Source of the DNA: an uncultured bacterium
GTDB taxonomy: Bacteria; Oederibacteriota; PGYV01; CAWJRG01
Direction of reading: 5' to 3'
Assembly: GCA_963845185.1 (NCBI GenBank)
Contig: CAWJRG010000009.1
Span: 864,001-928,000, forward strand
DNA length: 64,000 nt
The notes beneath the pieces were generated by a model that was not told the DNA's origin, did no database searches, and worked only from the letters and a program-made list of their open reading frames with translations. Numbering within the stretch: the first letter of the stretch is position 1; every line of letters starts with the position of its first letter. Positions 8,102 to 58,627 of this stretch are shown in pieces. Position numbers and translations under genes: made by a program.

Positions 8102-8202
8102 AAGATATCGTTTGTTTTGTCAAGCTTTTCTGCGCAGACAAAACATTACGAGATCTTGTACCCGCTCTAGTCCGAGGCCGCTAGGTCGAGGACAAGTGGT
8201 GC
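8102..8202 (+). repeat. Double-hairpin element A, dispersed copy
   Basis: aagatatcgtttgttttgtc..gacaaaacattacgagatctt + gtacccgctctagtcc..ggacaagtggtgc; homologous to the 52577-53176 units. Confidence 0.9.
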
Positions 8203-8663
8203 TACTTTCTTGCCGCCTTGATCATCAAACTCATTCCGCGGTTTATCCTTGATTTTACCGTTCCTTCGCTTATATTCAGCATGACAGCTATTTCTTTGTA
8301 TGATAGCCCTGTTATCTGTGAAAGTATAACAGGTATTTTCTGGTCGTCAGGCAGCAGCGATAAAAACGAATCAAGCTCAGTCGTGTCCCTCGGCCTGTAA
8401 GAAACCGGTTTGTCCACTTTATCAATTTTTCTTGTTTCAGCCGATTTTTTCCTCATCATGTCTATGCTCTCGTTGACAGCCATTCTATAAAGGTAAGTTT
8501 TTATCGAAGAATCGCCTCTGAAAGCATCCATATTATTAAAGAGCTTGATAAATACATTCTGTGTTATGTCCTCGGCGTCTTCCCTGTTGCCCATAACACG
8601 CAACGCCACGTTAAAAACATATTTGCCGTTTTCCCTGTATATTTCAATCTGGTTTTTATTCAC
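8202..8663 (-). CDS. ECF RNA polymerase sigma factor
   Basis: DAEDITQNVFIK, TYLYRMAVN, LSYKEIA..L.ISEGTVKSRINRG. Confidence 0.93.
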   Translation of the reverse strand: MNKNQIEIYRENGKYVFNVALRVMGNREDAEDITQNVFIKLFNNMDAFRGDSSIKTYLYRMAVNESIDMMRKKSAETRKIDKVDKPVSYRPRDTTELDSFLSLLPDDQKIPVILSQITGLSYKEIAVMLNISEGTVKSRINRGMSLMIKAARK

Positions 8664-8736
8664 TTATTTTCACCAATTAGACGTAAGTAAATGTCTTGAA
8701 AGTTCCTTGTAAAACAGGTCAAAAACCTGCCGGTGC

Positions 8737-9846
8737 TTAAACATTGAACTTAAAATATACAATATCCGCGTCCTGCATTATATAATCCCTGCCCTCGCTG
8801 CGCATAAGCCCGGCTTCCTTTACCTTTAGCTCTGTCTTCAGTTCAAAAAAATCGCTGTATTTCATAATTTCCGCCTTTATAAAACCGCGCTGGATATCGG
8901 AATGTATTTCGCCTGCCGCTTCTTCGGCACTGGTGCCTTTTCTTATGGGCCATGCGCGCGACTCTTTTTCACCGCCCGTAAAAAATGTAATCAGGTTGAG
9001 CAAATGGTACGCGTGCCTTATAAAATCATCAAATCCCCTGTAATCAAACCCGAGCTCTTTTATAAATTCCTTTTTTTCCTCAGGCGTTAGGTCTGCCATT
9101 TCCGCCTCGATTTTTGCCGATATAACTGCGTGTTCTGTGTTCTGGCTTTCCGTAAATTTAATAAGCTCGGGGTTATCCTTGTCAAAACTTTGTATTTTGT
9201 CCTCGTCGGTATTAAAAACATAAAGCATTGGCTTCATTGTAAGGAACTCGTACTGTTTTATTTCTGCTCTTTCGTCCTTGGTCAATTCAAGCGTAAACCC
9301 CATTTTGCCTTTTTCAAGCCAGGTTTTTATTTTAGCGAGAACAGTAAGTTTCTTTATCGCGTCTTTGTCGTTCCCGCGCGCCATTCTCTCCAGTTTTTCA
9401 GTTATATTTGCTATATTTTCAAGGTCTGCCAGCATTAATTCTGTATTTATTGTTTCTATATCGCCCATCGGGTTTAATTTTCCGACTGACCTTGCCACGT
9501 TCGGGTCTGTAAAAACCCTCACTATCTGCGCTACTGCGTCAACCTGCCTGATGTTTGCTAGAAACTTGTTGCCTAGCCCCTCGCCCTTGCTCGCGCCTTT
9601 TACAAGCCCGGCTATATCTACAAACTTGACCGTAGCCGGCGTTCTTTTGGTGGAGCCGTTATTGTAAGCGTTAAATATAAAATCAAGCCTATCATCAGGC
9701 ACATTTACGACTCCCACGTTCGGGTCTATGGTGCAAAACTCGTAATTTGCGACCTGCGCCCCTGCTTTTGTCAGTACGTTGAATATTGTAGATTTGCCCA
9801 CATTAGGCAGGCCGACTATTCCTATTTCCATATATGCTCCCTTCAA
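8737..9846 (-). CDS. ychF: Redox-regulated ATPase YchF (start probably at MEIGIVG)
   Basis: GIVGLPNVGKST, FCTIDPN, FVDIAGLVKGASKGEGLGN.FL, IHSD..RGFIKAE, FKFNV. Confidence 0.97.
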   Translation of the reverse strand: MKGAYMEIGIVGLPNVGKSTIFNVLTKAGAQVANYEFCTIDPNVGVVNVPDDRLDFIFNAYNNGSTKRTPATVKFVDIAGLVKGASKGEGLGNKFLANIRQVDAVAQIVRVFTDPNVARSVGKLNPMGDIETINTELMLADLENIANITEKLERMARGNDKDAIKKLTVLAKIKTWLEKGKMGFTLELTKDERAEIKQYEFLTMKPMLYVFNTDEDKIQSFDKDNPELIKFTESQNTEHAVISAKIEAEMADLTPEEKKEFIKELGFDYRGFDDFIRHAYHLLNLITFFTGGEKESRAWPIRKGTSAEEAAGEIHSDIQRGFIKAEIMKYSDFFELKTELKVKEAGLMRSEGRDYIMQDADIVYFKFNV

Positions 9847-10044
9847 TATTGTTTAACACTACCACATTTATAAATCATATTTCTCTTAATTTTATAAAAT
9901 CCCCTATTATCCCCCTTTATTAAGGGTGAATGCAAACATCCCGCCCGATGGCTTTGCCATTCTCTCCCCATTAACAAGGGGAGTTGGAATGGGTTTGCTC
10001 TTCCTATATAATTGTCAAGCCTATTGCATATTTAAGAGCTAAAC

Positions 10045-10076
10045 AAAAAAGGCCGGCGAGTTGCCGGCCTTTTTTT
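10045..10076. terminator. Rho-independent terminator after hppA (bidirectional shape)
   Basis: aaaaaa ggccggc gagtt gccggcc ttttttt. Confidence 0.85.
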
Positions 10077-10089
10077 ATATCACAAAAAT

Positions 10090-12480
10090 CTATTTCTTTG
10101 CTTTTGATACTTTCAGCGCGACCTCATCTGCTATTGCATCGACTGTTTTGTCTTCCCTCTTGGAGAAAACCAGGCCGCCGACCACTGTTCCGAGACAAGC
10201 CACCACTATAACAATAACCACCCAGTTGTATCCCGGGAAAGTTATGATTATAGGTGCGATAATAAGCGCCACAAGGTTCATGACTTTGATAAGCGGGTTT
10301 AAAGCCGGTCCCGCAGTGTCCTTAAACGGGTCTCCGACCGTGTCTCCGATAACCGATGCTTTGTGCCTTTCCGTGCCTTTTAATCCCATCCGCTCAACGG
10401 TCTTTTTTGCGTTATCCCACGCTCCGCCTGTGTTTGAAAGGTATACAGCCATAAGCTGGCCCACGAGAATAACTCCCACCAGGTATCCTGCAAGGCCTTC
10501 TGCCTTGAAAAGGAATCCGATTGCCACAGGCATCAATATTGCCAGCAGCGCAGGGCTGACAAGCTCTTTTAACGCTGCTCTTGTGCAGATATCAACGACT
10601 CTCGCAGATTCCGGTTTTGCCCTTCCGGACATAAGCCCTTTTATCTCTTTGAATTGCCTTCTGACTTCGTTAACGACAAGGAAAGCCGCCCTTCCGACTG
10701 CCCTGATTAAAATCGAGGAGAAAAGAAACGGCATGGCGCCTCCAATGAGAAGGCCGACAAAAACATTAGGCATTGATATGTCGAAAAACGAGATGCCTGT
10801 CGCCAGTTTGTATGACGAAAAAAGCGATACAGCCGCGATTACAGCCGTTGCTATTGCGAAACCTTTTGTTATTGCTTTTGTAGAGTTCCCTACTGCGTCA
10901 AGCTCATCAAGCACCTTCCTGCCCTTGTCCGACAGTTTCGCCATTTCGCCTATGCCCTGGGCGTTATCTGAAACCGGCCCGTAAGTATCCTCGGAAACAA
11001 TGATGCCTGTTACGGTCAACATGCCAAGTCCTATAAGCGAAACTCCGTAAAGAATCTGCTCGACAATAACAGCCCCGTTTCCTATTGGCGCAAGCGTAAA
11101 AATCAGTATTGAAGTGGCTATCGCAGCCGCTATTGAAATTATTGCCCAAACCGAGCTTTCCATTCCTTCAGCCGTACCGGCAAGGATTGTAGTTGCAGGC
11201 CCGGTGAGCGTTGCCTTGACTATTTCTTTTACAGGTTTGTCTTCTGTTGTGGTGAAATGTTCTGTCAATTTTGATATAAGGAACGAAAGGAAAATACCTA
11301 CCGTGGTAATACCAAAAAGCTTCCATCCAAGGATAGTCGCCGCGTTTGCGGGCACTCCTGTAAATTTATCAGCGCTTTCCGATATGTATTTGCCTATTGC
11401 AGGCACAAGGTAATAGGCTGTCGCTATTGCAAAGCCTATTATCGAAATTATCGACGCCACAAAAAATCCTCTCTGTATAGGCTTCATTGCGTGCTCTTCT
11501 TCCGACCTTGACCTTACCATGTATGTGCCGATTATTGACGCTACGACTCCAATGGCACGTACAAAAAGCGGGAAAATAACCCCGAGGTTCCCGAAAACCG
11601 TCGCGCCGAGAATCATGGCCGCGACAAGCGTTACCTCGTATGACTCGAATATGTCTGCTGCCATACCTGCACAGTCGCCTACATTATCGCCCACGTTATC
11701 CGCGATTGTGGCCGCGTTGCGCGGGTCGTCTTCCGGTATATTTTTTTCCACTTTGCCTACAAGGTCAGCCCCGACATCCGCTGCCTTTGTGTATATTCCG
11801 CCGCCTACCCTCATAAATAGCGCGAGCAGGCATCCGCCGAACCCGAAGCCTATCAGTATGTCTGAAATCGCGCTCGGTACCTTCTGAAATATTAAAAATA
11901 TTGACGTTGCGCCCAGCAATCCGAGGCCAATTGTAAACATGCCTGCGATTGTTCCTGTCCTGAAAGCCAGCGTCAGCGAATCTTTTTTGCCTGTTTCAAC
12001 AGCCGCGGCTGCCACGCGCACATTGCCGGCAACTGCAAGGGTCATGCCTATCATGCCTGTCAGGGCAGACGCAAGCGCGCCCAGTAAAAAAGCTATTGCC
12101 CTGCCGAATTTAATCATGTTAATCTGCGCAGGCGTAATAAGCTGGCCGTCGGAATTAAGCATCCTCGTGTCGACTTTTGTGGTGAAAAACAATACCACCA
12201 TCAGTACAACCACCAGGACTGCGATGGTTTTAAACTGCCTGGCGAGATAGGCTTTTGCGCCCTTTGATATCTCGTCGTTGATTGCAATCATTGTCTTGGT
12301 GCCTTTGCTCTTGGAAAGTATTTCAAACATAAGATAAACTCCGTAAAGCAGGGCCACAATAGCCATGCCCCATACAGACCACAGTGCAATCGTCTCAAAG
12401 TTGGACAGCGGCGCGAGCTTGATGTGCTCGGCTACTTTTTGTGCAACCTGAGGTACTGCTTGTGCCACAGTTTCATTCAT
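10090..12480 (-). CDS. hppA: Membrane H+-translocating pyrophosphatase, probably K+-independent
   Basis: GGGIYTKAADVGADLVGKVE, EDDPRN, DNVGDNVGD, GDTVGDPFKD; GNSTK (Lys at the determinant position). Confidence 0.96.
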   Translation of the reverse strand: MNETVAQAVPQVAQKVAEHIKLAPLSNFETIALWSVWGMAIVALLYGVYLMFEILSKSKGTKTMIAINDEISKGAKAYLARQFKTIAVLVVVLMVVLFFTTKVDTRMLNSDGQLITPAQINMIKFGRAIAFLLGALASALTGMIGMTLAVAGNVRVAAAAVETGKKDSLTLAFRTGTIAGMFTIGLGLLGATSIFLIFQKVPSAISDILIGFGFGGCLLALFMRVGGGIYTKAADVGADLVGKVEKNIPEDDPRNAATIADNVGDNVGDCAGMAADIFESYEVTLVAAMILGATVFGNLGVIFPLFVRAIGVVASIIGTYMVRSRSEEEHAMKPIQRGFFVASIISIIGFAIATAYYLVPAIGKYISESADKFTGVPANAATILGWKLFGITTVGIFLSFLISKLTEHFTTTEDKPVKEIVKATLTGPATTILAGTAEGMESSVWAIISIAAAIATSILIFTLAPIGNGAVIVEQILYGVSLIGLGMLTVTGIIVSEDTYGPVSDNAQGIGEMAKLSDKGRKVLDELDAVGNSTKAITKGFAIATAVIAAVSLFSSYKLATGISFFDISMPNVFVGLLIGGAMPFLFSSILIRAVGRAAFLVVNEVRRQFKEIKGLMSGRAKPESARVVDICTRAALKELVSPALLAILMPVAIGFLFKAEGLAGYLVGVILVGQLMAVYLSNTGGAWDNAKKTVERMGLKGTERHKASVIGDTVGDPFKDTAGPALNPLIKVMNLVALIIAPIIITFPGYNWVVIVIVVACLGTVVGGLVFSKREDKTVDAIADEVALKVSKAKK

Positions 12481-12633
12481 TCTGCTTACCTCCTGTTATT
12501 GGGATTTGAGTATTTTGGTAAAAAATTTCCACCATTTTTGCATATTTATCCGGGTTTGTAAAGTTTTTTTTGGATGTAAATTATCAAAGGTAAAATTATT
12601 CCCCTTTTTCAAAAATATTGCGTTTTGCGTCTT

Positions 12634-14130
12634 TTAATTTACGCTTTCCACCAGCACTGCCCTGAAGTGAAAGCCGTAAATGGAAAGTGTCATGGCGTCA
12701 ACCATTAAATTAGGTTTCCTGAAGAGTGTCCAGAAAAACATTTGCCAGAAATAAAATTTTCCCTCGCCCTTTATCCCGAGTTTCCAAATTGACTTGGCCG
12801 AAGCCTGAATCCAAAGCTTAAAATTAAGCTTCCTTACTTTTGCCGTACCCTTATATTCTTTTAAAAAAATAATTATTCTTTTGTAATAATTCTTTGGCGC
12901 GAAAATAGTATTCAAAATATGTTTATACCCCTCAATCAGCTTTTCTTTATTCATCTTGGGAATGAAATTCATGGTAAAATCCGTATTGTCTCCTGTCGTC
13001 CTTTTTATTATCCTGCCCGCCTCCTGCAGCCTTTTATACAGCGATGTCTCAGGCAGCGCTGTAAGTATGCCCACCATTGCCGTCACAATCCCGCTCTTTT
13101 GTATGAATTTAACCATGTTATCAAAAGTCTTTGACGTGTCAGTGTCAAAACCAACTATGAACCCTGCCTGCACCTGCAGCCCGTTTCTCTGCAGCACTTT
13201 TACTTTTTCCACCATATCCTTTTTGGTGTTCTGCAGCTTTCCGCAGGATTTCAGCGCCTCTTCGTCCGGTGTTTCAATGCCGACAAAAACCGAGTTAAAA
13301 TTCGCTTTTCTCATGAGCTCCATAAGCTCGTCGTCATCCGCAAGGTTTATGGATGCTTCAGTGTATAAAGTAAACGGGTATCTTTTGTTTTTCATCCATA
13401 CGATAATCTCATTTAATATATCTTTAACTTTTGCCCTGTTGCCTATGAAATTATCATCCACCACAAATAAGCTTCCTCGCCAGCCAGTAGAATACATAGC
13501 GTCAAATTCCCTTATTATCTGGCCTGGTTCCTTTACCCTGGGAACCCTGCCGTTCATTATGATGATATCACAGAAATCGCAGTTAAACGGGCATCCCCTT
13601 GAAATCTGTATGCAGAGCGACACGTATTCTTTTACGTTTATCAGCGACCAGTCAGGCACGGGTGTTTTTGAAATATCGGGTTTTTCATTGGAAAAATACA
13701 TTGGCTTTATGCTGCCGGACTTCAAATCACTGAGGAACATCGGTATTGTAACCTCGCCCTCGTTCAGCACAAAAGTATCTACGTTGTAAAAATCAGTGTG
13801 CGCGCCTGTAAAAAGCGGCCCGCCTGCCACGACAAACTTGCCGAATGATTTAGCCTTGTTTATCGCTTCCTGCGCTGACTTTTTCTGGACAATCATGCCG
13901 CTCACAAAAACATAATCCGCCCATTTTAAATCCTCATCTTTCAGTTTGTGCGCATTCATGTCAACAAGCCTTTTTTCCCACTCAGGCGGCAGCAAAGCAG
14001 ACACCGTTAACAAACCAAGCGGCGGTACGCCTGCCTTTTTGCTCACAAATGGCAAAGCGTATTTAAAACTCCAGAATGTTGCCGGATATTCCGGATATAC
14101 AAGCAAAATTTTCATCATTAAACTCCTCAA
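12634..14130 (-). CDS. B12-binding radical SAM protein (DUF4070-type C-terminus)
   Basis: PPLGLLTV, SRGCPFNCDFC (CxxxCxxC), VDDNFIGN. Confidence 0.92.
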   Translation of the reverse strand: MRSLMMKILLVYPEYPATFWSFKYALPFVSKKAGVPPLGLLTVSALLPPEWEKRLVDMNAHKLKDEDLKWADYVFVSGMIVQKKSAQEAINKAKSFGKFVVAGGPLFTGAHTDFYNVDTFVLNEGEVTIPMFLSDLKSGSIKPMYFSNEKPDISKTPVPDWSLINVKEYVSLCIQISRGCPFNCDFCDIIIMNGRVPRVKEPGQIIREFDAMYSTGWRGSLFVVDDNFIGNRAKVKDILNEIIVWMKNKRYPFTLYTEASINLADDDELMELMRKANFNSVFVGIETPDEEALKSCGKLQNTKKDMVEKVKVLQRNGLQVQAGFIVGFDTDTSKTFDNMVKFIQKSGIVTAMVGILTALPETSLYKRLQEAGRIIKRTTGDNTDFTMNFIPKMNKEKLIEGYKHILNTIFAPKNYYKRIIIFLKEYKGTAKVRKLNFKLWIQASAKSIWKLGIKGEGKFYFWQMFFWTLFRKPNLMVDAMTLSIYGFHFRAVLVESVN

Positions 14131-14369
14131 ATTAGCGTTTGTTTTGGATTTTTTTTATTGGAAGAATCAGTGTTCTTAGAATAAAGTTCTTTAATCCGTA
14201 TTTCTGGTATTACTATACGCTTTAAAGCACAAATAGTCAAGGATTTTGGCGGCGAATGGCTTTGTTTTTTCCTCCCCCTTAACAATGGGAAACGAGGGGG
14301 TTTTGTTAGCAAAAGTAAAGTTTCTGCTGAATAGGTAATATGTTCTAGTTTTTAAAGATTTAGAAAGCT

Positions 14370-15014
14370 TTATGGGACGACAGGCGTAGGTGTTGCGGTG
14401 CTTACTGAATACAATACTGGTGAGGATGCAGGCGTCGGCGCAAAAGGCCCTATAGTTGTGGTGGTTGTCCCTGTACAATTGTCCACAAATATATACTTAC
14501 CAACAATAGGTAAATTAGTTTTATTCATAACATACCATCCAGTAACAGGTTGCATTATGGCAAAACATGTTGGTTCGCCAGGGCACCATGAATTAGTTGT
14601 TGTAATATTTATATACACATTATTACAATCGGTTGTTATATTGGTCAATCCCCTCGCATCAGACATGCAACCTCCGGTTATCATAACGCCTATGATAATT
14701 TGTTTATTAAAATCCACAGGAACAGGGGTCGGCGTTGGAGAACCTGCAGGAGCATAACCTGTATAATTTGCCAGATAAAATGCTTCTGTTGTAATAATAT
14801 AATCTCCAGCAGGTAAAGCAAGACCAGAAACAGTACCATAATTCAGGCTGCTATAATTTACATTACCCGGTACGCACGTTGTAGGAGTGAAAACAGGCGT
14901 AGATGTTGGAACAGGTACAGGCGCTATTACCGTGCTGGAAGGCCTATTGCAATTTGAAATAAAGATAATCATTAAAATCAGTATTAATACTGTTATCGCA
15001 CTTTGTTTTTTCAT
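14370..15014 (-). CDS. Putative lipoprotein with Pro/Thr-rich segments
   Basis: Lipobox-like ISNC; VDFNKQIIIGV resembles PrcB-C-like domains. Confidence 0.6.
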   Translation of the reverse strand: MKKQSAITVLILILMIIFISNCNRPSSTVIAPVPVPTSTPVFTPTTCVPGNVNYSSLNYGTVSGLALPAGDYIITTEAFYLANYTGYAPAGSPTPTPVPVDFNKQIIIGVMITGGCMSDARGLTNITTDCNNVYINITTTNSWCPGEPTCFAIMQPVTGWYVMNKTNLPIVGKYIFVDNCTGTTTTTIGPFAPTPASSPVLYSVSTATPTPVVP

Positions 15015-15140
15015 GTTTTAAACACTTCCTATTTTATATATTATACCACATTTATCCTATGTTTGTTAGACAATTTATATGTATAAAAGTTCTGTTAAAT
15101 CGACTATGCTTTTATTACGGTTTGTCCTAATCTACCTAAC

Positions 15141-15177
15141 AAAAAAGCCCCAAACGCTTAAACCTCGGGGCTTTTTT
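15141..15177. terminator. Probable terminator
   Basis: aaaaaagcccc...ggggctttttt. Confidence 0.7.
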
Positions 15178-15219
15178 ATGAAAGCAAATATATTTCAACT
15201 CTAAAACATTGCTTATTGT

Positions 15220-15942
15220 TTATGGCGTGTTAATAATGATTTGCCCGTCCGCTCCATTACCACCTGAATAATTGCAATTGTAACCACTACCTCCGGCACC
15301 AACAGTCACATTGTAAATATGTCCTGACGTAACACTGATTTGGATTTGACCATATCCACCACCACCACCACCGCCGCCGCCATTAGAAGACGTATTGTAA
15401 CCGCCTGCACCACCACCTCCGCCACCAGGTGCTGTGCCGTTAGTCCCATTATAACCAGCAACGCCACCAATACCTCCTGCTCCGCCATTGTTAGCACCGG
15501 CACCACCATTGCCACCTGTTGAACCATTATAGGGCATTCCGCTTCCACCAGTTATATTACCACTGCTTCCAACACCGCCGGAACCACCACAACAGTTACC
15601 ACTAGATGCCGTAATTATAGCAGTACCAGTACTGGCATCATTAAATGAAGAGGTATTTCCATTACTATAACCTCCAGCACAAGCACCACCGCCACCACCT
15701 GCACCCCAGATTTGTATTGTGATGCTGTTTATATTATTTGGCACAGTAAATTGATAAGTGCCCGACGCTGTGTAAGAACCAAGATTTCCTTGAATTTGAG
15801 TAGGCACTGCTGTAGGCTTAGAAGAAGAAGTACTATTTGTAAGTTTACACCCATTCAGAATTAAAATTGCTGTAAAAACTAATACCGGAACTAAAACCTT
15901 TTTCATAAACTTTTCCTCCTTTTTTATTAGTTTTAATACCAT
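15220..15942 (-). CDS. Glycine-rich lipoprotein
   Basis: LNGC lipobox; FTVP..I.IQIWGAGGGG...YNVTVGAGG glycine-rich domain. Confidence 0.75.
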   Translation of the reverse strand: MVLKLIKKEEKFMKKVLVPVLVFTAILILNGCKLTNSTSSSKPTAVPTQIQGNLGSYTASGTYQFTVPNNINSITIQIWGAGGGGGACAGGYSNGNTSSFNDASTGTAIITASSGNCCGGSGGVGSSGNITGGSGMPYNGSTGGNGGAGANNGGAGGIGGVAGYNGTNGTAPGGGGGGAGGYNTSSNGGGGGGGGGYGQIQISVTSGHIYNVTVGAGGSGYNCNYSGGNGADGQIIINTP

Positions 15943-16083
15943 TTATTTCCTAAATTTTTATGTTGAAATTATACTTTATTCTATTATATTTGTTAAGTAT
16001 TTTGTTTGGTTTTTTGATTCTTTTAAATAATCCAAATTAGGGTAATAAACAGAAGGCAAAGCAATATTAAGCTAATGTTAGAT

Positions 16084-16911: not shown

Positions 16912-16969
16912 ACATTGCTCCTTTGATTTAATGGTGCCAGGCCGAAGATTGCGCGATGACTTATATGGA

Positions 16970-18505: not shown

Positions 18506-18553
18506 TTAAAAACAAAAAATTTGAATTTTATTTGTTAAACCCGATACTAAGAT

Positions 18554-19840: not shown

Positions 19841-19846
19841 TATGTC

Positions 19847-20679: not shown

Positions 20680-20690
20680 ACTTGCCTCCC

Positions 20691-20855
20691 TTGATATTGT
20701 TTGTTTTGTCAAGCTTACCGGCGCAAGTTAAATAGTCTTGTAGACTATTTGACGGGTAGTCTCCATAAAGTTAGTAAATATAAAAACTACCCTAAACATT
20801 ACGAGATCAAGCACCCAATCAAGTCCGGGACTTTTAAGCCGAGGACGAGAGGTGC
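20691..20855 (+). repeat. Element A copy in lexA leader, carrying inserted element D (20727-20792)
   Basis: ttgatattgtttgttttgtcaagc...aaacattacgagatcaagcacccaatcaagtcc..ggacgagaggtgc. Confidence 0.85.
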
Positions 20856-20870
20856 CTGTTTACTTCATTA

Positions 20871-24958: not shown

Positions 24959-25012
24959 GGAGCGCTATCAATTCCCACCTCTACTGGTGGGGTCTTTCGC
25001 GGAGTGGGATTA
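24959..25012. repeat. Palindromic element B
   Basis: ggagcgctatcaattcccacctctactggtgggg...cgcggagtgggat; related copies at 43473 and 54640. Confidence 0.7.
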
Positions 25013-43367: not shown

Positions 43368-43471
43368 TTGATTTCGTTTACTTTGTCAAGACGCCAACAG
43401 TCGCCGGCAAAGTACTACGAAATCATGTACCCGCTCCAGTCCGAAGCCAATAGGCTGAGGACAAGCGGTAT
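43368..43471 (+). repeat. Element A copy, followed by element B (43473-43527)
   Basis: ttgatttcgtttactttgtc..ggcaaagtactacgaaatcatgtacccgctccagtcc..ggacaagcggtat. Confidence 0.9.
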
Positions 43472-43532
43472 AGGAGCGGTCAAATATCCCCGCCTCTACT
43501 GGCGGGGATTTTCGCGAAGCGGGATCAAAATT

Positions 43533-44051: not shown

Positions 44052-45101
44052 TCACTGGACATATATTCCTGTTGCCACTCCATATGTACCTACTGGCAAA
44101 TCCACTTTATCGTTATTTGCCCAGTAACAAGGAATATCATCCGTGCCATTATAATAATAACCGGCTGTATATACTATACCACCTGACACATATATTGAAT
44201 ATGTCATTGCATCTCCATTTATACCGCTACCGGCTAAATCTGTCCTTGCAATTCCCGCCCAGTAGCAAGCAATATTTTTTCCGCCGTCGTTATAGTATCC
44301 GGATGTATATACTGTCCCTCCTGATACATTTATTGAATTTGCAATCCCGTAATGCGTTGAAACCCCATCACCTGGCAAATCCGTCTTTACAAAACCCGTC
44401 CAGTAACAAGGGACAGAATAACCGTAATTGTAATAATACCCTGCGGTATATATTGTACCTCCCGACACATATATGGAAGTTGCGTATGCATTGTTTGTGC
44501 TTACCAGCAAATCAGTCTTTATTATACCCGTCCAGATGCAGGGTATTGTTGTACTGCCGTTATAATAATCGCCGGCTGTATATACTGTACCTCCTGATAC
44601 ATATGTTGAATTTACATTTGCGCCATTTATATTATTCAGTAAATCCGTTCTTGTCGTCCCTGTCCAGTAACACGGAATATAATAACTGCCGTTATAATAA
44701 TTCCCGGCTGTATATACTGTACCTCCTGATACATATATAGAAGTCACATTTGCTTCATTATTAATCCCCGGCGGTAAATCCGTTTTTGTCGTCCCCGTCC
44801 AGTAACACGGAACATCATAACTGCCGTTAGAATAACTGCCTGCCGTGTATACCGTTCCTCCCGAAACGCATATTGAAGACGCAGATGCGCCGTACAATCC
44901 GTTTCCAGCCAAATCTGTCCTTGTTGTACCCGCCCAGTAACACGGTATTGTTAAGCTGCCGTTATAATAACTGCCTGCTGAATAAACTGTCGGGCCTTTT
45001 GCAGGTGCAGGCACGGTAGGAGCCGCGGCTTGCTTGCACCCGTTTGTTAACAAAGCAAAAGTTATTAGTAAAAGCATCAATAAAAAAATAGTTTTTTTCA
45101 T
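44052..45101 (-). CDS. Repeat lipoprotein (probable beta-propeller), duplicate 1
   Basis: TNGC lipobox; about 7 repeats SIYVSGGTVYTAG.Y.NG...PCYWTG...TDL. Confidence 0.85.
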   Translation of the reverse strand: MKKTIFLLMLLLITFALLTNGCKQAAAPTVPAPAKGPTVYSAGSYYNGSLTIPCYWAGTTRTDLAGNGLYGASASSICVSGGTVYTAGSYSNGSYDVPCYWTGTTKTDLPPGINNEANVTSIYVSGGTVYTAGNYYNGSYYIPCYWTGTTRTDLLNNINGANVNSTYVSGGTVYTAGDYYNGSTTIPCIWTGIIKTDLLVSTNNAYATSIYVSGGTIYTAGYYYNYGYSVPCYWTGFVKTDLPGDGVSTHYGIANSINVSGGTVYTSGYYNDGGKNIACYWAGIARTDLAGSGINGDAMTYSIYVSGGIVYTAGYYYNGTDDIPCYWANNDKVDLPVGTYGVATGIYVQ

Positions 45102-48931: not shown

Positions 48932-49032
48932 TACGCTTTTATTGTTTTCTATATATATTAGACAAATTTATTATAAAAAAGTTTCAAAAAACAATATTAT
49001 TATTTTACCCCTTTATAATAAATTAAAAATTT

Positions 49033-52000: not shown

Positions 52001-52332
52001 TAAGTGGCGCCTGGAGTGCCCGCGCAGTTTGTGACAGGCGGGTTCGGCGGGCACATATATGAATCACTGCTGTCAGGTCCATAATCAGTCCCCGCGTTTG
52101 ACGCGTTGTTTTCCCAGTTATATCCTGTCAGCCTGTTCCCGCCCATACGCATGCAGGTAAAATCAGAGCTGTCGCCGAAACTGTCGTCATTCGTGCCGTA
52201 GATATACGGGCTTATCGGCGCCAGTCCCTGTGTTGTATTGATTGAAATGTTCGCTGAAAAAAGGCATATAGGCAGGATAAATAAAAAAAGGGCAAATTGA
52301 ATACGTTTAAATGATGTTTTCAAGCTTATCAC
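49033..52332 (-). CDS. Secreted GH44 endoglucanase/xyloglucanase with CBM-like domain, long Thr-rich linker and CTD
   Basis: RMGGNRLTGYNWENNASNAGTD, LDNEPGIW, SEWNFG; WPNPYNP...LADGTYYY. Confidence 0.92.
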   Translation of the reverse strand: MISLKTSFKRIQFALFLFILPICLFSANISINTTQGLAPISPYIYGTNDDSFGDSSDFTCMRMGGNRLTGYNWENNASNAGTDYGPDSSDSYMCPPNPPVTNCAGTPGATYQYFVSTNNSKGYASLVTIPMAGYVAADMNGDVTAAQTAPSSRWHPIYYTKGSPFTYPPNTTDDAVYMDESVWYLVQTFGNASTSTGVKFYDLDNEPGIWNGTHPYLHPNHVTCNEYVNDSIALGGAIKNVDPYCMIFGGVFFGWSDYINLNGAPDWTTALNTNYIWFVSYYLYMMNQSYQATGKKPIDVLDFHYYSEATDGTCRVTDNGCSTYLTAANDVARMNATRTLWETGYAENSWINPYFLQYTPLIPLIQQSINQYFPGTKISFSEWNFGAGREFSGGLTDTDFLGICGKYGVYLATLWPVDEGGYSAAAFKMYRNYDGAKSTFGNTNIQADSDTSTISVYASINGSDLSTIHMIIVNKYNTAQPANITITSSQTYTTMQVYGFDQTSYTITARSTVAINNNYFSYNMPAYSAMHFIIKSNTTPTNTPVVSITQTTTFTLTKTITPPWTQTPTYTRSATYTITPTFTVTPALVATIIYDGDTAGATLSDGTVNNTAPGTMTQVTGGDLGNMMLLTYTNVAGYWQQLWWTLNNPKNIGTNLYLTFNMKEDASSPNPVGQMYLTADTNWAINVDPAAYIVGGGTLSTTTWSTVRIPLSAVIDAGQTQITFLAFTASVASTDNFTVDIDNIRLEGYPGTPTNTPVYSRTLTQTFTVTRTTTLTNTVAMTLTNTPKNTMTLTTTETSTLTTTGTSTTTRTNTPTYTITTTLTNTPSSTPTNTMTATPTETEIVSPTPTITGTPPTETDTPTITMTTTLTETYTFTCTLTITPSYTITMTYTVVILSVTYTPTYTMTPTDTATPTYTGTYTYTFTPTYKYSVTLTYTNTLTPTYSNTVTLTYTITKTPTTSLTITRTYTITLTYTATPNVSPTFSMTCPCIIPTITPGITVINVWPNPYNPNLGNLSIGYTIAQDTDEVDIRIYTIAFRLIKVIIVSGSDSASSDEKTETVDKANFSNLADGTYYYILTAKQAGKQVKSKTGVIIILK

Positions 52333-52429
52333 CTAATCCGGATAGAATATCTTTAACATTAATCGTTAAATCAATAATATCATAGAATATTTCAGAAAGC
52401 AAGGTTTCTTCAGGTTGCCGAAAAGGTGC

Positions 52430-53176
52430 TTGATGATGTTTATTTTGTAAAGCTACGCTGCAACAAAATCCACGGGACTGCATGCCGTAAGTTTTTGTTC
52501 CACAAAAACAACGGTCTGCAGTATTACAGCACTCAAGTACCCGCTCAAGTCCGAGCTCTATCCTGACAAGCGGTACTTGATATTCGTTTACTTTGCCAAG
52601 CCGTCAACAGGTGCAGGCAAAGTATTACGAAATCATGTACCCGCTCAAGTCCAGGTTCTTTTTGGACAAGCGGTACTTGATATTCGTTTACTTTGCCAAG
52701 CCGTCAACAGGTGCAGGCAAAGTATTACGAAATCATGTACCCGCTCAAGTCCGAGCTCTATCCTGACAAGCGGTACTTGATATTCGTTTACTTTGCCAAG
52801 CCGTCAACAGGTGCAGGCAAAGTATTACGAAATCATGTACCCGCTCAAGTCCAGGTTCTTTTTGGACAAGCGGTACTTGATATTCGTTTACTTTGCCAAG
52901 CCGTCAACAGGTGCAGGCAAAGTATTACGAAATCATGTACCCGCTCAAGTCCAGGTTCTTTTTGGACAAGCGGTACTTGATATTCGTTTACTTTGCCAAG
53001 CCGTCAACAGGCGAAGGCAAAGTATTACGAAATCATGTACCCGCTCAAGTCCAGGTTCTTTTTGGACAAGCGGTACTTGATATTCGTTTACTTTGCCAAG
53101 CCGTCAACAGGCGAAGGCAAAGTATTACGAAATCATGTACCCGCTCAAGTCCAGGTTCTTTTTGGACAAGCGGTAT
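52430..53176 (+). repeat. Tandem array of element A: one variant unit (52430-52576) plus six 100-bp units (52577-53176)
   Basis: Exact 100-bp period; units differ only in two hairpin-loop regions. Confidence 0.95.
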
Positions 53177-53633
53177 TGCTTATTATCACATAAAATGCTT
53201 TTTAATAAAATGCCAGCCTTTTGTTAATATGTACTTCCCTGCCTTTGCGGCTGCCGTATTCGGCTCCTGTCCGGCTATGCCGCTGATCTCGGTATGTAAA
53301 GTTTCTAGTTTCTGGTCTCTTGTTTCTGGTTGTTCTTTTTCTAGAACCTTGAAACTAGAAACCAGAGACTTCTTCTTTTCTCCCACTTCGCACGTCGCAC
53401 CCAGCACGTTACACATTCTTTCAAACATCCCCGGCAAATCCGCCAGATACGGGTTCCCACTAGCCTGAGCCCAGCCAAAGGCCGCCTGTCCTGAGCCTCC
53501 ATCGCCCTGAGCTTGCCGAAGGGCCCATATGACTCCCGCCACCCCCAAAGCCGCCATAGCCGCCACGGGCTCGCCTGGTATTATAATATGAAACCCGCCC
53601 TTGAGCGACCTTTTTGCTATATATCGCCCAAAT

Positions 53634-53994
53634 TGTGGATAATATGGGATTCCCGTAAATTGCCCCCTTACAGGCCCTCCCAATCCATGGTTTTTATGAG
53701 CTGCTCATAAATCTTCACCCCTAACCGCCGGATTTCTTACTTTTGGTAAGAATCGCCTCCTACAACGATTTCAACTAATAATTACAGGGATTTTTTTAAA
53801 TTACTGTCCAAATTCCGACATATCGCTACCCCGTTTACCAGATAACTAGACTTAAAAAATGTGGATAATACGGGATTCCCGTAAATTGCCTGCCTGCCCC
53901 TGGGCTTTTCCGGTCTTTACCAACCCTCCGACCCTCTAACCCTCCAGCCTTCCGCTTTTCCAGCCTCCCATGCCGCCTCCCAAAATGTGGATAA
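53634..53994. promoter_or_regulatory. Three perfect DnaA-box sequences (TGTGGATAA) in the same orientation
   Basis: 53634-53642, 53860-53868, 53986-53994. Confidence 0.5.
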
Positions 53995-54104
53995 ATTTGC
54001 TTCGCCAAGAATTGCCCCCAGACCCCTGCCTTTAGCTTTAACTAACCCTCTAACCCTCTGCTCTTCTGACCTCCTGCTGTTTCATTTTGAAACATACTTT
54101 AAAA

Positions 54105-54326
54105 TCATTCCCCTTGAACTATATTGCCATCAGAGTCTTGGAAGCTATCCATGCCTATCGAGATGAGATCAAACACTGTCCCAATCCCGCAGAGCCCGCC
54201 GGTAGCAAGCCACAGCAAGCCCGTCCATACCTTGCCAACATAAAACCTGTGTATGCCTCCCAGCCCCACAAACCCAAGGCAGCAGAGTAATATAACCATA
54301 AATTTTGGTTTAGATGATATAGCCAT
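54105..54326 (-). CDS. TM2 domain protein
   Basis: LG..GIHRFYVGK..TGLLWL.TGG..GIG...DLI.I. Confidence 0.9.
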   Translation of the reverse strand: MAISSKPKFMVILLCCLGFVGLGGIHRFYVGKVWTGLLWLATGGLCGIGTVFDLISIGMDSFQDSDGNIVQGE

Positions 54327-54489
54327 ACATACCTCCTGATATATTTACTGAAGCACTCAGCACGTCGCACTTGGCACGCCGCACGTCTTTTCTGTTGAAC
54401 CTTGCTCTCCTCACCTTAAACATTGAGCTTTGAACCTTGAACTTTGCCTTTACCCCTTGAGCCTTGAACTTTGAACCTTGAACTTTGCC

Positions 54490-54740
54490 TTTATCTATTG
54501 GTTTTTCATGCCATAGAAATTTCTTAATACGCTCCATCCCTTGATATCGTTTGTTTTGCCAAGCCGAAGGCGCCGGCAAAACATTACGGGATCAAGCACC
54601 CGTTCCAGTGCTGGCCTTATCAGCACAAGTGGTGCCGTAGCGCTATCCATCCCCGCCTCTACCGGCGGGTTTTTGCGGAGCGGGAGTAATAATGTTATTA
54701 CGAATAATATCAGGGCTGCTAATGCAATAATCACATACAT
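54490..54740 (-). pseudogene. 5' remnant of a paralog of the 56396-58468 helicase, interrupted by elements A+B
   Basis: ILFVITLLL[insert]IKKFLWHEKPI versus ILFVITLLLFKKFPRHEKPI. Confidence 0.75.
54541..54635 (+). repeat. Element A copy (element B follows at about 54640-54686)
   Basis: ttgatatcgtttgttttgcc..ggcaaaacattacgggatcaagcacccgttccagtgctg..cagcacaagtggtgc. Confidence 0.9.
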
Positions 54741-54934
54741 CTTTCACTCCTTCATCCCTTTGCCATTTTGAAGCTAATTAAGCCGAAAACTCCACAACAA
54801 GCATAGTCCTGAGCTTGCCGAAGGGTAAGGTCTGTCCCCAGTCATTTTTATTATCACATGACGTGGATTGTTCGGGTTGAGACGAATTTTTGAGATTGCG
54901 ATTTTCATGCTAAAACCTCCCTTTAAATTTTCTA

Positions 54935-55450
54935 TTAATTTTTTATTATTATAATTTTTTCATCTTCAGCCGGAGGCTCAAAAGCCTTGATTGTCATATC
55001 CAGAAGATTCTTATCTATTATCGAGCGGCTTTTGCCGGATTTGTTTTCCTCCCACCTTTCATATATCTTCGGCACAGGGACTTCGACATAAATAACAGCC
55101 GCATCAGCGCCGGATTCTCCGGCTATCCTGCGCAAATCATCCCTGCTTTGCCGTGTATGGTTTGTGGAATCGTATAAAACATTCAATGAATCTTCCAGTG
55201 CCATTCTTGACCTGGCTGACGCTATGCCAAAAATGCTTGCCCATGCTTTTTCGTCAGGAATCTTGTTTGAACTCCAGTCAAATCCATGCGCCTTAAAAAT
55301 CTCATCAATACTTACATACGCGCATTTGGTGCTTTTGAGAATCTTTTCGGCAATATATGTTTTGCCCGAATACGGCATCCCGCACAAAATAAAAAGCGTC
55401 TTTTGCCTGCTGTTTATTTCCCGTATGAGATTTTCAAGTGATTCATCCAT
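54935..55450 (-). CDS. P-loop kinase (AAA_33-like)
   Basis: LCGMPYSGKT, SIDEI, YDSTN. Confidence 0.85.
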   Translation of the reverse strand: MDESLENLIREINSRQKTLFILCGMPYSGKTYIAEKILKSTKCAYVSIDEIFKAHGFDWSSNKIPDEKAWASIFGIASARSRMALEDSLNVLYDSTNHTRQSRDDLRRIAGESGADAAVIYVEVPVPKIYERWEENKSGKSRSIIDKNLLDMTIKAFEPPAEDEKIIIIKN

Positions 55451-55463
55451 ATAATTTTCACCT

Positions 55464-56138
55464 TCACATTTTATTCAACAATCTTATCATTTCTTTAAAA
55501 TCAGGCAATATATGTTTTGCGCCGGCTTTTAAAAGGGCTTTCTTTTCCTTGCCGGAAGCAATTCCGATAAATTCCCATCCAAGGGCATCCGCAGCTTTTA
55601 CATCCCATATCCAGTCTCCCACATAAACAATCTTTTTAAACTTTTTTACCCGGGATTTTTTCATGGACTTATGAAGGGCAGACTTCATGATTATCCCGCG
55701 CATAAGCCCATCCTCGGCTGTAGCCAGCGGCATATTCCGGCAGTCAAGCCCGGCGCTTCTCAGCTTGTACTGCCCCGAAACACGCCAGTTTCCTGTTGCT
55801 ATAGCTGTGAACCAGTCAGGAGTATTTGATAACTTCTTCAGGCATTCTTTTGCGCCAATCATGCTTTCAAAAGGCTCTCTCCCGTATTCCCTGTCAAGCC
55901 ATAAAGCCATGCTCTTTTTAAACTCAGTTATATCCACGGGCATACATGAACGTCCCAGGTTTTTTTCAATGATTTCATTGAGTATGCCGGAATCCGTAGA
56001 GCTGTGGTATTCCGACCAGTTGTCCTTGATTGTTATCCCAAAAACATCTTTAATGGCATTTACATAAGCCCGGTCATTCATCTTCCTGTGGTATTTGATT
56101 AATGTCCCATCAATATCAAAAACAACAAGATTCATCAT
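55464..56138 (-). CDS. HAD-family hydrolase
   Basis: FDIDGTL, ATGN, YVGD..WDV.AA. Confidence 0.9.
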   Translation of the reverse strand: MMNLVVFDIDGTLIKYHRKMNDRAYVNAIKDVFGITIKDNWSEYHSSTDSGILNEIIEKNLGRSCMPVDITEFKKSMALWLDREYGREPFESMIGAKECLKKLSNTPDWFTAIATGNWRVSGQYKLRSAGLDCRNMPLATAEDGLMRGIIMKSALHKSMKKSRVKKFKKIVYVGDWIWDVKAADALGWEFIGIASGKEKKALLKAGAKHILPDFKEMIRLLNKM

Positions 56139-56395
56139 TTACTCCCTTTTTCATTGAAAATTGTTTTACAGCCGTCTTCATTGTAATACCCCCTTTATTT
56201 AGTTTTTAATGCCAAATTCCAAATCCTAAATTGTCTGAGATTTTCCTCGGATTATGAGGATTCGGCATGATTTTTGAAATTGCAATGTTCATTGTAGTGC
56301 CCCCTTTGTATGATTTTTTTTATTGAGCTTTAACTTATTTTATTTCTCAAATTGCTGGTTGTCAATTGAAAATTGCTTTAAATACGTTTTCATGA

Positions 56396-58468
56396 TTACC
56401 CCATCCCCATTTCAGTTATCATTTCCCTTGGCAGGTATTTTTCGTTTGTGAATTCCGACTGTTTCCCGCTCATCGTGGCCACATACACATGCCTGCGCGC
56501 GCGCGTGACAGCGACATAAAACAGCCTTGTTTCCTCCTCTTCCAGGTTAAATTTGTTCCCCCTGCATAGCCTCAACACCCCATCCCTTATCTTTTGATGG
56601 TGGTCCTCGGCAGGAAAGCAATATTTACAATCGTTGTTTTTTACACAGTCCAGTATCAGCACATTGTCGCTTTCCAACCCTTTTGATCTGTGTATGGTCA
56701 AAAACTCGTATTTCCTGTCAGGGTATTCTTCCGTCAGTATATCCCGGTACGGCTCAAGAATAAAATTATACCGCGCGAGTATTTTCAGCGATTCTTTTTT
56801 CGGCACTTTTGACATTATATAGTCTACCAGCATTTCCTTCTGTCCGTCCCGGTCTGCCAGCGTTATCAGCGTCAGGGTTTTATCTTCGGCTTTTTGCCCG
56901 GGAAGGTATTTACCTTCCACCTTTTTAAAAAGCTGTACCCTGTTGTTTTTAATTATAGCGTTCGATATGTCTACAATCCTGGGATGGCAGCGGTAATTGT
57001 ACTGCAGTTTTACAAGCGACGCCTGGGGGAAATAGCTTTCAAACCTGACCATAAAAAGCGGGTCGCTGCCGGCAAATGAATATATGCTCTGGTAATCGTC
57101 GCCTATGGCAAAAAGCGACTGCCTCTCCCCGGTAAGGAGCCTGATAAATTTCCTCGCCAGCGGCTGGAGGTCCTGGACCTCGTCAACAAATATATGCTCA
57201 TATTCGCCTCGCAGTTTTTCAAGCAGGTCCTTGTCGTTTTCCATGGCATCCACCGCGTATTTCAGGACATGCGTAAAGGTCGCTTTCCCTTTCTGCTCAA
57301 GCCGTATTTCCAGTTCATCGGTTATAGGCACTGCAAATTTCAGGATATGTCTCATGAAAGGGTCCGCTTTCGGCAGCAGGGCTCTCAGTGTTGTCCCGTA
57401 TCCTATGACGATGTTCAATATGTCGAGTATCAGCTGCACAAGCTGCTCTTCAAGCGTATTCAGGATGTTGTGCAGTTTGGCCTCATTCGGGCCGTTTCTT
57501 CCGGTCAGGCCTTTTCTGTTGAGTTTCCATACCAGGTAATCGTCAGGCGGCGTATTTGCGCTTCCGTTTGATTCATATAAGTCTATCAGGTAAAAGCCGT
57601 ATTTCCTGAACTGCTCCTGCTTCCACTCCATTTGTTTTTTATACCTGTCCCTGATAAATGGATTTGGATGGTTCGCGAGCCCCCAGTACTCCGCGTAAGC
57701 GTCGTATTTGGGAAAGTAAAAATCCGGCTCAAAATACCTGTCCGCCCATGTCACAAAAGGCTCGTATACAAAATCAATTTTTTCCGACAGCAGCCTCTCG
57801 ACTATCCACCTCTCGGCATGGGAGCGCACCTTGAGCCCGTTTGAGCAGGCAATACCGGCTTTATGCTCTTCCAGTTTTTTGTTTTTTGATTTAAGCGAGG
57901 ACAAATCCGCGTTCCCGAAAAGGTCGACAACTGCCGCCTCATATCCGGCGCCGTGCTTTTTCCTGTATTCTTCCAGCCCTTCCTTGACAAAGTTTTCCAG
58001 TTTTTTATCGTCTTCAAAAATATCCAGGCGCCCCCTGTGTTTTTCCGCTGTTTCCAGGGCTATGGAGTGTATAGTGCGGATATTGGGTTTCAGCGACTCC
58101 GGAACGCGCCCCGTGGCTTTCCCGACCCTCTCCCGCACTTCTTCAGCCGCGTTTTTATTGAATGCCATTACCATCATCTTTGATATCGGTATGCCCATAT
58201 ATTTCGAAAACAGGATTATTCTTTTGGTCAGCACGCTTGTTTTTCCCGCCCCTGCCCCGGCAATCACAAGCGTCTCCTTATATGGCGATGTAAGCGCCAT
58301 TTGCTGCAAATTGTCAATCCTGCCGTCCGCCCAAAGCTCCCTTGCCGCGATGGGAAAACTTGCAAATTGCGGCATTATTGGTTTTTCATGCCGTGGAAAT
58401 TTTTTGAATAATAATAATGTTATTACAAATAATATCAGGACCGCTATTGCAATAATAAGAATAAACAT
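56396..58468 (-). CDS. UvrD/helicase IV-like SF1 helicase with N-terminal TM and inserted PD-(D/E)XK-like domain
   Basis: AGAGAGKT, VDEVQD, GDDYQSIY.F.G, NYR, TIHRSKGLE, YVAVTRAR; RSHAE...YEP...PDFY...EYWG insert. Confidence 0.88.
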   Translation of the reverse strand: MFILIIAIAVLILFVITLLLFKKFPRHEKPIMPQFASFPIAARELWADGRIDNLQQMALTSPYKETLVIAGAGAGKTSVLTKRIILFSKYMGIPISKMMVMAFNKNAAEEVRERVGKATGRVPESLKPNIRTIHSIALETAEKHRGRLDIFEDDKKLENFVKEGLEEYRKKHGAGYEAAVVDLFGNADLSSLKSKNKKLEEHKAGIACSNGLKVRSHAERWIVERLLSEKIDFVYEPFVTWADRYFEPDFYFPKYDAYAEYWGLANHPNPFIRDRYKKQMEWKQEQFRKYGFYLIDLYESNGSANTPPDDYLVWKLNRKGLTGRNGPNEAKLHNILNTLEEQLVQLILDILNIVIGYGTTLRALLPKADPFMRHILKFAVPITDELEIRLEQKGKATFTHVLKYAVDAMENDKDLLEKLRGEYEHIFVDEVQDLQPLARKFIRLLTGERQSLFAIGDDYQSIYSFAGSDPLFMVRFESYFPQASLVKLQYNYRCHPRIVDISNAIIKNNRVQLFKKVEGKYLPGQKAEDKTLTLITLADRDGQKEMLVDYIMSKVPKKESLKILARYNFILEPYRDILTEEYPDRKYEFLTIHRSKGLESDNVLILDCVKNNDCKYCFPAEDHHQKIRDGVLRLCRGNKFNLEEEETRLFYVAVTRARRHVYVATMSGKQSEFTNEKYLPREMITEMGMG

Positions 58469-58530
58469 AGGGTTATAGGTTACTCAAATTTTTGGCCTGA
58501 TTTTGAAAATTGCGATGTTCATTTCACCCC

Positions 58531-58627
58531 TTGATGATGTTTATTTTGTAAAGCTACGCTGCAACAAAATATTACAGCATTCAAGTACCCGTTCAAGTCC
58601 AAGGCTATAGCCGAGGACAAGCGGTAT
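58531..58627 (+). repeat. Element A copy
   Basis: First 40 bp identical to array unit at 52430; gtacccgttcaagtcc..ggacaagcggtat. Confidence 0.9.

Follow-up and report, generated by a model that had tools for sequence, protein, structure and literature searches.

Double-hairpin repeats abut Shine-Dalgarno sites of unrelated genes in an uncultured bacterium and terminators in a sister family

Introduction

Small structured repeats are found in many bacterial genomes and belong to several described classes. Repetitive extragenic palindromic (REP) sequences and bacterial interspersed mosaic elements (BIMEs) are extragenic hairpins of high copy number that lie at gene boundaries and within operons, are co-transcribed and strand-specific, and are retained by their hosts. 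REPs are single palindromes of 20-40 nt with a GTAG head, often paired in inverted orientation, and the gene of the REP-associated tyrosine transposase (RAYT), a Y1 enzyme of the HUH type, is typically flanked by its REPs. IS200/IS605 ends and palindrome-associated transposable elements (PATEs) are characterised by polar insertion 3' of a short motif, absence of target duplication, single-strand hairpins and orientation bias. BOX elements, enterobacterial repetitive intergenic consensus sequences/intergenic repeat units (ERIC/IRU) and Correia elements are small structured co-transcribed repeats with terminal inverted repeats or modular boxes; to our knowledge, none of them is locked to Shine-Dalgarno (SD) sites. 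Here we describe element A, a fold-capable repeat whose unit of about 100 nt forms two adjacent hairpins. It was noticed in a 64,000-nt stretch of DNA from an uncultured bacterium (G000:C9:864001-928000; hereafter the window), which is part of a 3.5-Mb host genome (G000) that is 99.4% complete.

Two further systems are close to element A in their position relative to genes. Neisseria REP2 repeats are 120-150 bp long, occur in about 26 copies and provide a promoter, ribosome-binding site plus ATG in the gene-sense strand, and the IR-A/IR-B repeats of Borrelia plasmids are similar to them (PMC3184786, in part). Group IIC introns land in sense orientation, downstream of an inverted repeat and the Ts that come after it (PMC1702495, in part). 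In the titles and abstract openings of the literature on Goldbacteria/FCPU426, on group II introns and terminators, on REP2, and on transposable elements of the miniature inverted-repeat type (MITEs) and Shine-Dalgarno sites, element A is not described.

In this study, we show that element A is locked in fixed register, and antisense, to the ribosome-binding sites of dozens of unrelated genes, and that in a sister family its relatives are locked not to these sites but to terminators. Both arrangements are unusual, as is a conservation in place that lies well above neighbouring synonymous sites at the few comparable loci. We tentatively favour the explanation that element A is a lineage-specific, non-autonomous, strand-polar mobile element which has been partly domesticated, and we put this at a little short of an even chance.

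Results

Element A is a repeat family dispersed over the genome

A profile built from seven window copies gave 173 matches in the 3.5-Mb genome (nhmmer, E<1e-3), 12 of them in the window. Full-length copies account for 104 of the 173, and a covariance model with stricter filters retained 94 copies. Matches were found on C1, C5, C6, C8, C9, C10 and C11, that is, dispersed over most large contigs. The main length class measures 93-110 nt; in another class, of 152-171 nt, hairpin I is enlarged by additional DNA, mostly a small palindromic repeat with about 26 copies genome-wide. All long open reading frames (ORFs) of the window are on the - strand and all its element A copies on the + strand. The five single copies and the seven-unit array listed in the initial annotation are all present, in one orientation:

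8102..8204, + strand: copy 1, fills the entire gap from the stop codon of an extracytoplasmic function (ECF) sigma factor gene (8202-8204, - strand) to the SD of the next gene
8097..8101, - strand: SD abutted by copy 1 (AGGAG; complement ctcct), ATG at 8089
20691..20860, + strand: long copy measuring about 170 nt, with a small palindromic repeat (aaatagtcttgtagactattt...) nested in hairpin I and interrupting it
43368..43472, + strand: copy 3, not SD-adjacent; a TPR gene starts about 50 nt away
52428..53178, + strand: array of head-to-tail units, the first of 152 nt and the following six of 100 nt, joined ...GGTAC/TTGAT...
54541..54637, + strand: copy 5, immediately adjacent to the ATG (54537, - strand) at which a small paralogous ORF starts
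58531..58629, + strand: copy 6, adjoins cacccc (SD-like GGGGTG on the - strand) and a 12-codon ORF before a UvrD-like helicase gene

Element A abuts Shine-Dalgarno sites in fixed register

Junctions were read for the 104 full-length copies, 11 of which are internal array units, leaving 93 non-array copies. On the + strand the 5' flank is nearly always ...CAT-N5-10-yCTCC, the complement of a start codon and an SD; the CCC that had been noted in front of dispersed copies is the complement of a Shine-Dalgarno site. A test for SD plus ATG was passed by 61 of the 93 non-array copies and by 1.1% of random positions. The other non-array copies comprise five with an SD and another possible start, three with an SD only and 24 with neither. 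When the copies are aligned on the invariant CGTT, 63-67 of 90 have CTCC at positions -12 to -9. Flank information drops to background from -14 outwards and homology ends one base beyond CTCC. The junction motif is yCTCC-Y-T-T/A, in fixed register. Spacer and start codon vary among copies; the homology of element A ends at the SD core.

The two ends, CTTGAT... and ...GCGGTAT, are not inverted copies of each other. Inspection of the flanks at the 104 junctions revealed no target duplication and no terminal inverted repeats. The yCTCC is fixed on the 5' side and has no repeat on the 3' side, the boundaries being provisional. A by-eye look for guide-like complementarity between the element and the flank motif found none.

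The abutted genes are unrelated and include lexA, GH44, TPR, UvrD-like helicase, pyrB and hydrogenase genes. Among copies with an opposite-strand gene on either side, about one in four has the stop codon of the upstream gene within about 30 nt. Copies inside operons stand between the genes for the ECF sigma factor and a putative anti-sigma factor, between pyrR and pyrB, between mvhD and the gene for a hydrogenase small subunit, and between the genes for an outer-membrane efflux protein and its HlyD partner. Since it lies inside operons, transcription must yield the reverse complement of element A, which rules out a strong terminator in the mRNA sense. A promoter and terminator scan called the copies as neither, the promoter part being a weak test.

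The orientation of the element flips with regional gene orientation. SD-abutting copies belong to locally minority-strand genes in 7 of 91 cases, compared with 13.6% of all genes (p=0.12; crude ORF map). Orientation follows the abutted gene and not all genes or the replication fork. The gene-strand bias of the genome is itself very strong for a non-Firmicute lineage: the locally dominant strand holds about 86% of crude ORFs. Gene strands converge near C9:750,000, which is probably the terminus.

The fold is selected and favours the top strand

RNAalifold, applied to a MAFFT alignment of 65 copies of the host genome, gave a consensus fold of two adjacent hairpins with 32 pairs, in which 95.5% of the cells are standard pairs. 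Compensatory changes on both sides were seen in 19 of the 32 pairs. Values as high as those observed for pairing and covariation were reached in 0 of 500 shuffles, and sliding the partners by 1-3 columns reduced pairing to 34-48%. The selected structure proposed in the initial annotation is borne out. On 30 distinct copies from other genomes, double changes occur in 27 of the 32 pairs, in an alignment that is fitted to the model and thereby favours the structure. Hairpin II is conserved in sequence (ATACCCGCTCAAGTC...GACAAGCGGTAT) and hairpin I covaries.

The two strands are not equivalent. In 86 distinct copies of the host genome, wobbles read on the top (+) strand amount to 104 G-T/T-G against 23 A-C/C-A, and purine mismatches to 32 G-A/A-G against 7 C-T/T-C. 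The alignment folding energy is -26.8 kcal/mol on the + strand and -17.5 on the - strand (RNAalifold). All four single copies of the window that were folded have lower energy and more negative z on the + strand (z -5.5, -8.2, -4.7 and -4.2, against -2.8, -4.9, -4.2 and -2.9). These values agree with the earlier observation that the strand opposite the genes suits the non-canonical pairs. Folding of the mRNA (-) strand is nevertheless significant (z of -2.8 to -4.9). The G-T excess is confined to about 11 pair positions and A-C to about four; the excess reflects a few subfamily-level states and not 104 events.

Strand-specific mutation had been named as a possible source of this bias. In sister family f10, where the same element strand is sense to the genes, we counted 46 G-A/A-G against 3 C-T/T-C; G-T (5) and A-C (7) are uninformative for strand asymmetry there. 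Since the sister family keeps the G-A bias in the sense strand, and compositional skews in the window are only about 10%, the top-strand asymmetry is not explained by mutation bias alone.

Relatives carry the element behind terminators

The model search of the genome and its relatives that was proposed with the initial annotation was carried out. Besides the 173 profile matches in the host genome, the covariance model detected the element in 11 of 23 same-order genomes, with 1-15 copies each. Among these 11 are 7 of the 8 genomes of family f10. In the other genomes of the phylum it was detected in 0 of 17. Matches to the hairpin-II motif came from metagenome-assembled genomes of candidate division FCPU426 or of uncultured bacteria. 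Further motif matches in Actinomycetota and elsewhere were set aside; they do not match the profile and look unrelated.

The context of the element differs between the two lineages. The nearest 5' ORF is on the element's strand at 20 of 21 f10 loci, and a terminator-like hairpin with a T-run ends right at the element at 19 of 21; an SD complement was found at 0 of 21. In the same comparison, an SD complement is present at 62 and a terminator at 2 of the 93 copies of the host genome. Four of the 19 terminator loci are orthologous and a few others may be, and together they represent well over ten different terminator sequences. The remaining two f10 loci start at the fabG stop codon, upstream of acpP. 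This copy is present in four genomes in all, two of them in addition to those of the two loci, and the fabG-acpP spacer of the host genome is without a copy, that is, an empty site. In one f9 genome the 3' end of a tRNA gene is where the element begins. Head-to-tail arrays also occur in relatives. The f2 genome G001 has the same SD context as the host genome, in both of its two full-length copies.

Copies are conserved in place

A metagenome contig encoding a sigma factor of 94% identity carries the same copy as the one at 8102. The two copies agree at 99 of 102 aligned bases (97.1%). In the flanking genes, the same comparison gives 72.5% and 81.1% at third codon positions and 93-97% at first and second positions. 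The three substitutions and one indel fall at a mismatch or in the hairpin I loop. Identity among the four orthologous fabG-acpP copies is 67-79%, where fabG third positions reach 45-62%, and their fold is kept by many double changes, including those in the stem that holds the stop codon. Such conservation in place, seen at few loci, argues against a freely decaying insertion.

Neighbours of the window copies and accompanying repeats

At copy 8102, the ECF sigma stop codon overlaps the last pair of the element. Pfam named the sigma factor only and assigned no family to the protein encoded downstream, which we read as its putative anti-sigma partner from a Cys/His motif and its operon position. 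Copy 20691 adjoins cctcc (20685-20689) and the lexA ATG (20679, - strand). Copy 43368 is followed by a separate terminator-like module at 43489-43516 and copy 54541 by one at 54652-54677. The array is located upstream of a gene for a GH44 glycoside hydrolase (- strand), 96 nt away from it. Tandem Repeats Finder describes it as 6.6 units of 100 nt with 95% matches, preceded by the 152-nt unit.

Other repeats accompany element A. The palindromic second repeat, located at 20726-20795 inside copy 20691 and at about 26 places in the genome, has the core aaatagtc-N3-5-gactattt. It sits in the 3' half of hairpin I in the copies examined, and a few examples look free-standing. The first array unit has a different insert of about 60 nt (52458-52520) between AAAAT and ATTAC of hairpin I, which makes the 3' side of hairpin I a recurrent insertion point. 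Full copies are often trailed by a fragment of a second unit (for example at C5:381436, C10:189547, C10:356043 and C9:530983), mostly truncated immediately behind ...AAGCC, at the apex of hairpin I. Since some tandems consist of hairpin I alone or of hairpin II alone, each hairpin behaves as a module that can be separated from the other.

A third repeat has the sequence CCCGCC-TCTAC-YGGCGGG with a T-run and then GCG behind it. The genome has it at 12 places, three of which are in the window (24974-25001, 43489-43516 and 54652-54677). Each of these three has the form of an intrinsic terminator on the + strand, the one opposite to the genes, and two are placed just 3' of element A copies that precede paralogous small ORFs (MERIKKF...). 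Repeats of 132-135 bp at 44375-44978 are part of a 349-aa ORF on the - strand and represent a repeated protein domain.

Search for a known family or a mobilising enzyme

Rfam gave 0 matches in the window at the gathering score, and with E up to 10 only chance miRNA-type matches over the array and copy 5. The relatives' copies had no match with E up to 1. No riboswitch, ribozyme, attC or CRISPR match was found, in line with the initial annotation, and its remark that no cognate enzyme is encoded here holds for the window. A parent element was sought as half-copies flanking cargo; none was found with a 5' motif that is too loose for this purpose. Only four extra hairpin-II motifs lie outside profile matches in the genome.

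A mobilising enzyme was looked for among Y1, RVT_1 and integrase genes, and no link was found. Y1_Tnp matches are present in 28 of 41 genomes searched, with and without the element; these include 6 of the 8 genomes of the sister family and the f2 genome with its shared SD context. G003, G008, G009 and G020 have the element and no Y1 match, and several genomes have Y1 without the element. None of six Y1 loci checked in relatives has the element beside it. A Y1 link in relatives was rejected for lack of co-distribution and adjacency. The host genome has no integron integrase above the cut-off, the best TIGR02249 score being 86 bits against 265.

The host genome also contains six group II introns of about 1.9 kb, none of them in the window, which are 99.3-99.8% identical and carry Rfam D1-D4-6 and domain V/VI matches and an RVT_1 ORF:

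C9:700695, C9:811636, C9:845477, C10:383780, C10:832145 and C11:62007 (loci L110-L115): group II introns

They were dismissed as mover, being separate 1.9-kb elements unrelated to the copies. All six lie in sense right after GGAGG-N6-7-ATGA, just behind the start codons of lipoprotein-like genes. In the domain VI loop there is a further AAAGGAGG...ATG, in frame with the gene that is interrupted, and the intron seems thereby to supply a ribosome-binding site and a start codon in place of the original ones. Four identical IS110 copies of 1288 bp with a 355-aa DEDD transposase are found at C1:323041, C5:335702, C9:330368 and C10:445859. Three of their four left flanks end in CACCCT/CTCTCCC-type repeats (two with CACCCT units) and the fourth is unrelated. 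The flanks suggest IS110 elements with a repeat-specific target.

Discussion

Copy number, spread over unrelated genes, nested insertions and heterogeneous tandems count for mobility of element A. Polar copying in particular is suggested by the fixed register, the orientation rule, the arrays and nested insertions, the empty fabG-acpP site and the asymmetry shared by two lineages. In such copying, a short pyrimidine word (CTCC in the host genome, the T-run in f10) would be the place against which the top strand is set with its 5' end. The top strand would have to fold, as single-stranded DNA (ssDNA) or RNA, for copying and insertion by a trans-acting enzyme. At its 5' end the top strand always borders on a short pyrimidine motif. 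In the host genome this motif occurs mainly as the SD complement, so that copies accumulate just upstream of ribosome-binding sites, antisense; in f10 it is the terminator T-run, and copies lie behind terminators, in sense. Head-to-tail arrays could arise by insertion after hairpin II and YTT of an earlier copy, plus slippage. Once inserted, the element would be co-transcribed in mRNAs, in the host genome as its reverse complement, which would still form two hairpins. Selection would then keep it, most likely as an orientation-independent hairpin spacer that may influence how mRNAs are processed, how stable they are or how accessible the ribosome-binding site is. That retention is independent of the direction of transcription is suggested by a fold which is kept both in sense (f10) and antisense (G000, G001).

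Several points weigh against a mobile element. Close relatives provide no filled/empty pair, the sole relative from the metagenome scan being filled, and strong conservation in place suits a functional RNA or DNA element equally well. The CTCC may be either the target or a part of the element. Copy-private substitutions are without bias (2 G-T against 3 A-C, too few events to decide), so the top-strand asymmetry may come from a few founders. The top strand is the transcription template and probably the leading-strand template, and neither of these is usually exposed as ssDNA. Candidate enzymes are also missing: in the host genome Y1_Tnp (PF01797), a search in which control genomes gave matches, and TnpB (PF07282) both had 0 matches, and a Y2_Tnp search was blank but uninformative, its controls being silent too. 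RVT_1 is absent from all five element-bearing relatives checked, and a reverse transcriptase was on this ground rejected as mover. IS110, with seven genes in the host genome, was likewise rejected, as the four identical copies whose flanks were read lie in a different repeat.

The same body of data may be explained by element A being chiefly a functional cis-acting RNA module and not a selfish mobile element, which we consider somewhat unlikely. Such a module would serve as 5' leader or intercistronic spacer in the host genome and as 3' or intergenic module in the sister family, and would shape mRNA processing, stability or translation. It would have spread by leader-cassette recombination, and the asymmetry would be a relic of ancestors with the top strand as RNA. 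An in-place identity of 97.1%, equal to that of non-synonymous sites where third positions reach 72.5-81.1%, counts for this explanation. So do the compensatory changes by which the fabG-acpP orthologues of four genomes keep their fold, stop-codon stem included. Its place in operons directly before the SD, the significant fold of the mRNA-sense strand (z -2.8 to -4.9) and the fact that the structured strand is the sense strand in relatives are equally in its favour. The genes served are unrelated, however, their orientation relative to the element is opposite in the two lineages, and the better-folding strand in the host genome is not the mRNA strand. Little RNA is expected at the 19 of 21 sister-family loci behind terminators, and the constant junction register, the arrays and the nested insertions require a copying mechanism anyway.

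The initial annotation had considered an ssDNA substrate of HUH/REP-like or attC-like type and an antisense structured RNA, none of which holds up well. A REP/PATE-type substrate of a Y1 transposase that was lost from the host genome after a copying burst is quite improbable. It would account for strand-specific hairpins, a short 5' motif and the absence of visible target duplications and terminal inverted repeats, and Y1_Tnp does occur in the 6 of 8 sister-family genomes and in the f2 genome with SD context. Yet the genome with the highest copy number has neither Y1_Tnp nor TnpB matches, the enzyme and the element are not co-distributed among relatives (G003, G008, G009 and G020 against several genomes with Y1 alone), and 0 of 6 Y1 loci have an adjoining copy. 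Moreover, the two hairpins of element A are unlike each other, whereas IS608-type ends are alike, and orientation tracks genes and not replication. An antisense RNA from the top strand of the host genome, its 5' part complementary to ribosome-binding site and start codon and its hairpins a scaffold, would control the translation of more than 60 genes in cis; we regard this as very improbable. The best fold does lie on the antisense strand, directly after the complement of SD and start codon. A scan for the terminator-like module on both strands, with 7 matches on the + and 5 on the - of contigs, places the T-run on the top strand at all 12 loci, including the three of the window, two of them just 3' of a copy. 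Its promoter, on the other hand, would sit in unrelated coding sequences, where a conserved upstream promoter is not possible and nothing is conserved upstream of -13. Most copies are without a terminator on the top strand, and in the sister family the top strand is sense and behind terminators. An attC-like site of an integron-type system, which would fit an imperfect bulged hairpin with one better-folding strand and a single orientation in the window, is effectively refuted: no integrase scores above the cut-off, copies are dispersed genome-wide over most large contigs instead of forming one cassette array, some lie inside housekeeping operons, and inspection of the consensus showed no GTTRRRY-type core at the ends.

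If polar insertion of a mobile element, the explanation we tentatively favour, is true, element A is a natural example of small-element retargeting, and a candidate phylum without cultured members would hold an as yet unrecognised enzyme that mobilises it. It is rather unlikely that it also represents a new class, namely a hairpin-defined, strand-polar element whose landing word can be retuned between lineages (T-run or CTCC) and whose mover falls outside Y1/HUH, TnpB, DDE, IS110 and reverse transcriptase, forming a host-retained layer at more than 60 translation-initiation regions. This layer would lie between promoters or upstream cistrons and ribosome-binding sites, genome-wide. If the functional RNA model is true, an undescribed structured module is present on more than 100 mRNAs. 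Under either model, gene calling and operon interpretation in these genomes are affected.

Among described systems, the membership features that were tested fail for REP2, for group IIC introns (structure), for REP/RAYT and for IS200/IS605 PATEs, and each of these shares a part of its properties with element A. Like BOX, ERIC/IRU and Correia elements it is small, structured, interspersed and co-transcribed with its neighbours; unlike BOX, ERIC, Correia and a classical MITE it has no terminal inverted repeats and no target duplications. With REP/BIME it has in common high copy number, extragenic hairpins, a position at gene boundaries and within operons, co-transcription, strand specificity and retention by the host, but it measures about 100 nt, joins two unlike hairpins in direct order and forms head-to-tail arrays, and its genome has no RAYT/Y1 gene (PF01797, 0 matches). 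Apparent polar placement 3' of a motif, apparent lack of duplication, single-strand hairpins and strong orientation bias recall IS200/IS605 PATEs; in contrast to these, no TnpA/TnpB was found, orientation tracks the abutted gene, and the folded strand is probably opposite to that expected for lagging-template insertion. The sister-family element resembles group IIC introns, as far as the part of PMC1702495 consulted describes them, in lying directly after a terminator stem-loop and Ts, in sense (19 of 21 loci). In the host genome, the landing site is instead the SD complement, with 2 of 93 copies behind terminators, and the unit of about 100 nt has no ribozyme domains, reverse transcriptase ORF or Rfam intron match. 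Compared with REP2, element A is present in about 170 copies, ends at the SD core without an ATG, contains no promoter by a weak test, folds better antisense and lies behind terminators in the sister family. With REP2 and IR-A/IR-B, in the portion of PMC3184786 consulted, it shares an interspersed distribution without terminal inverted repeats, two internal stem-loops, and a position immediately upstream of unrelated genes, fused to the ribosome-binding site.

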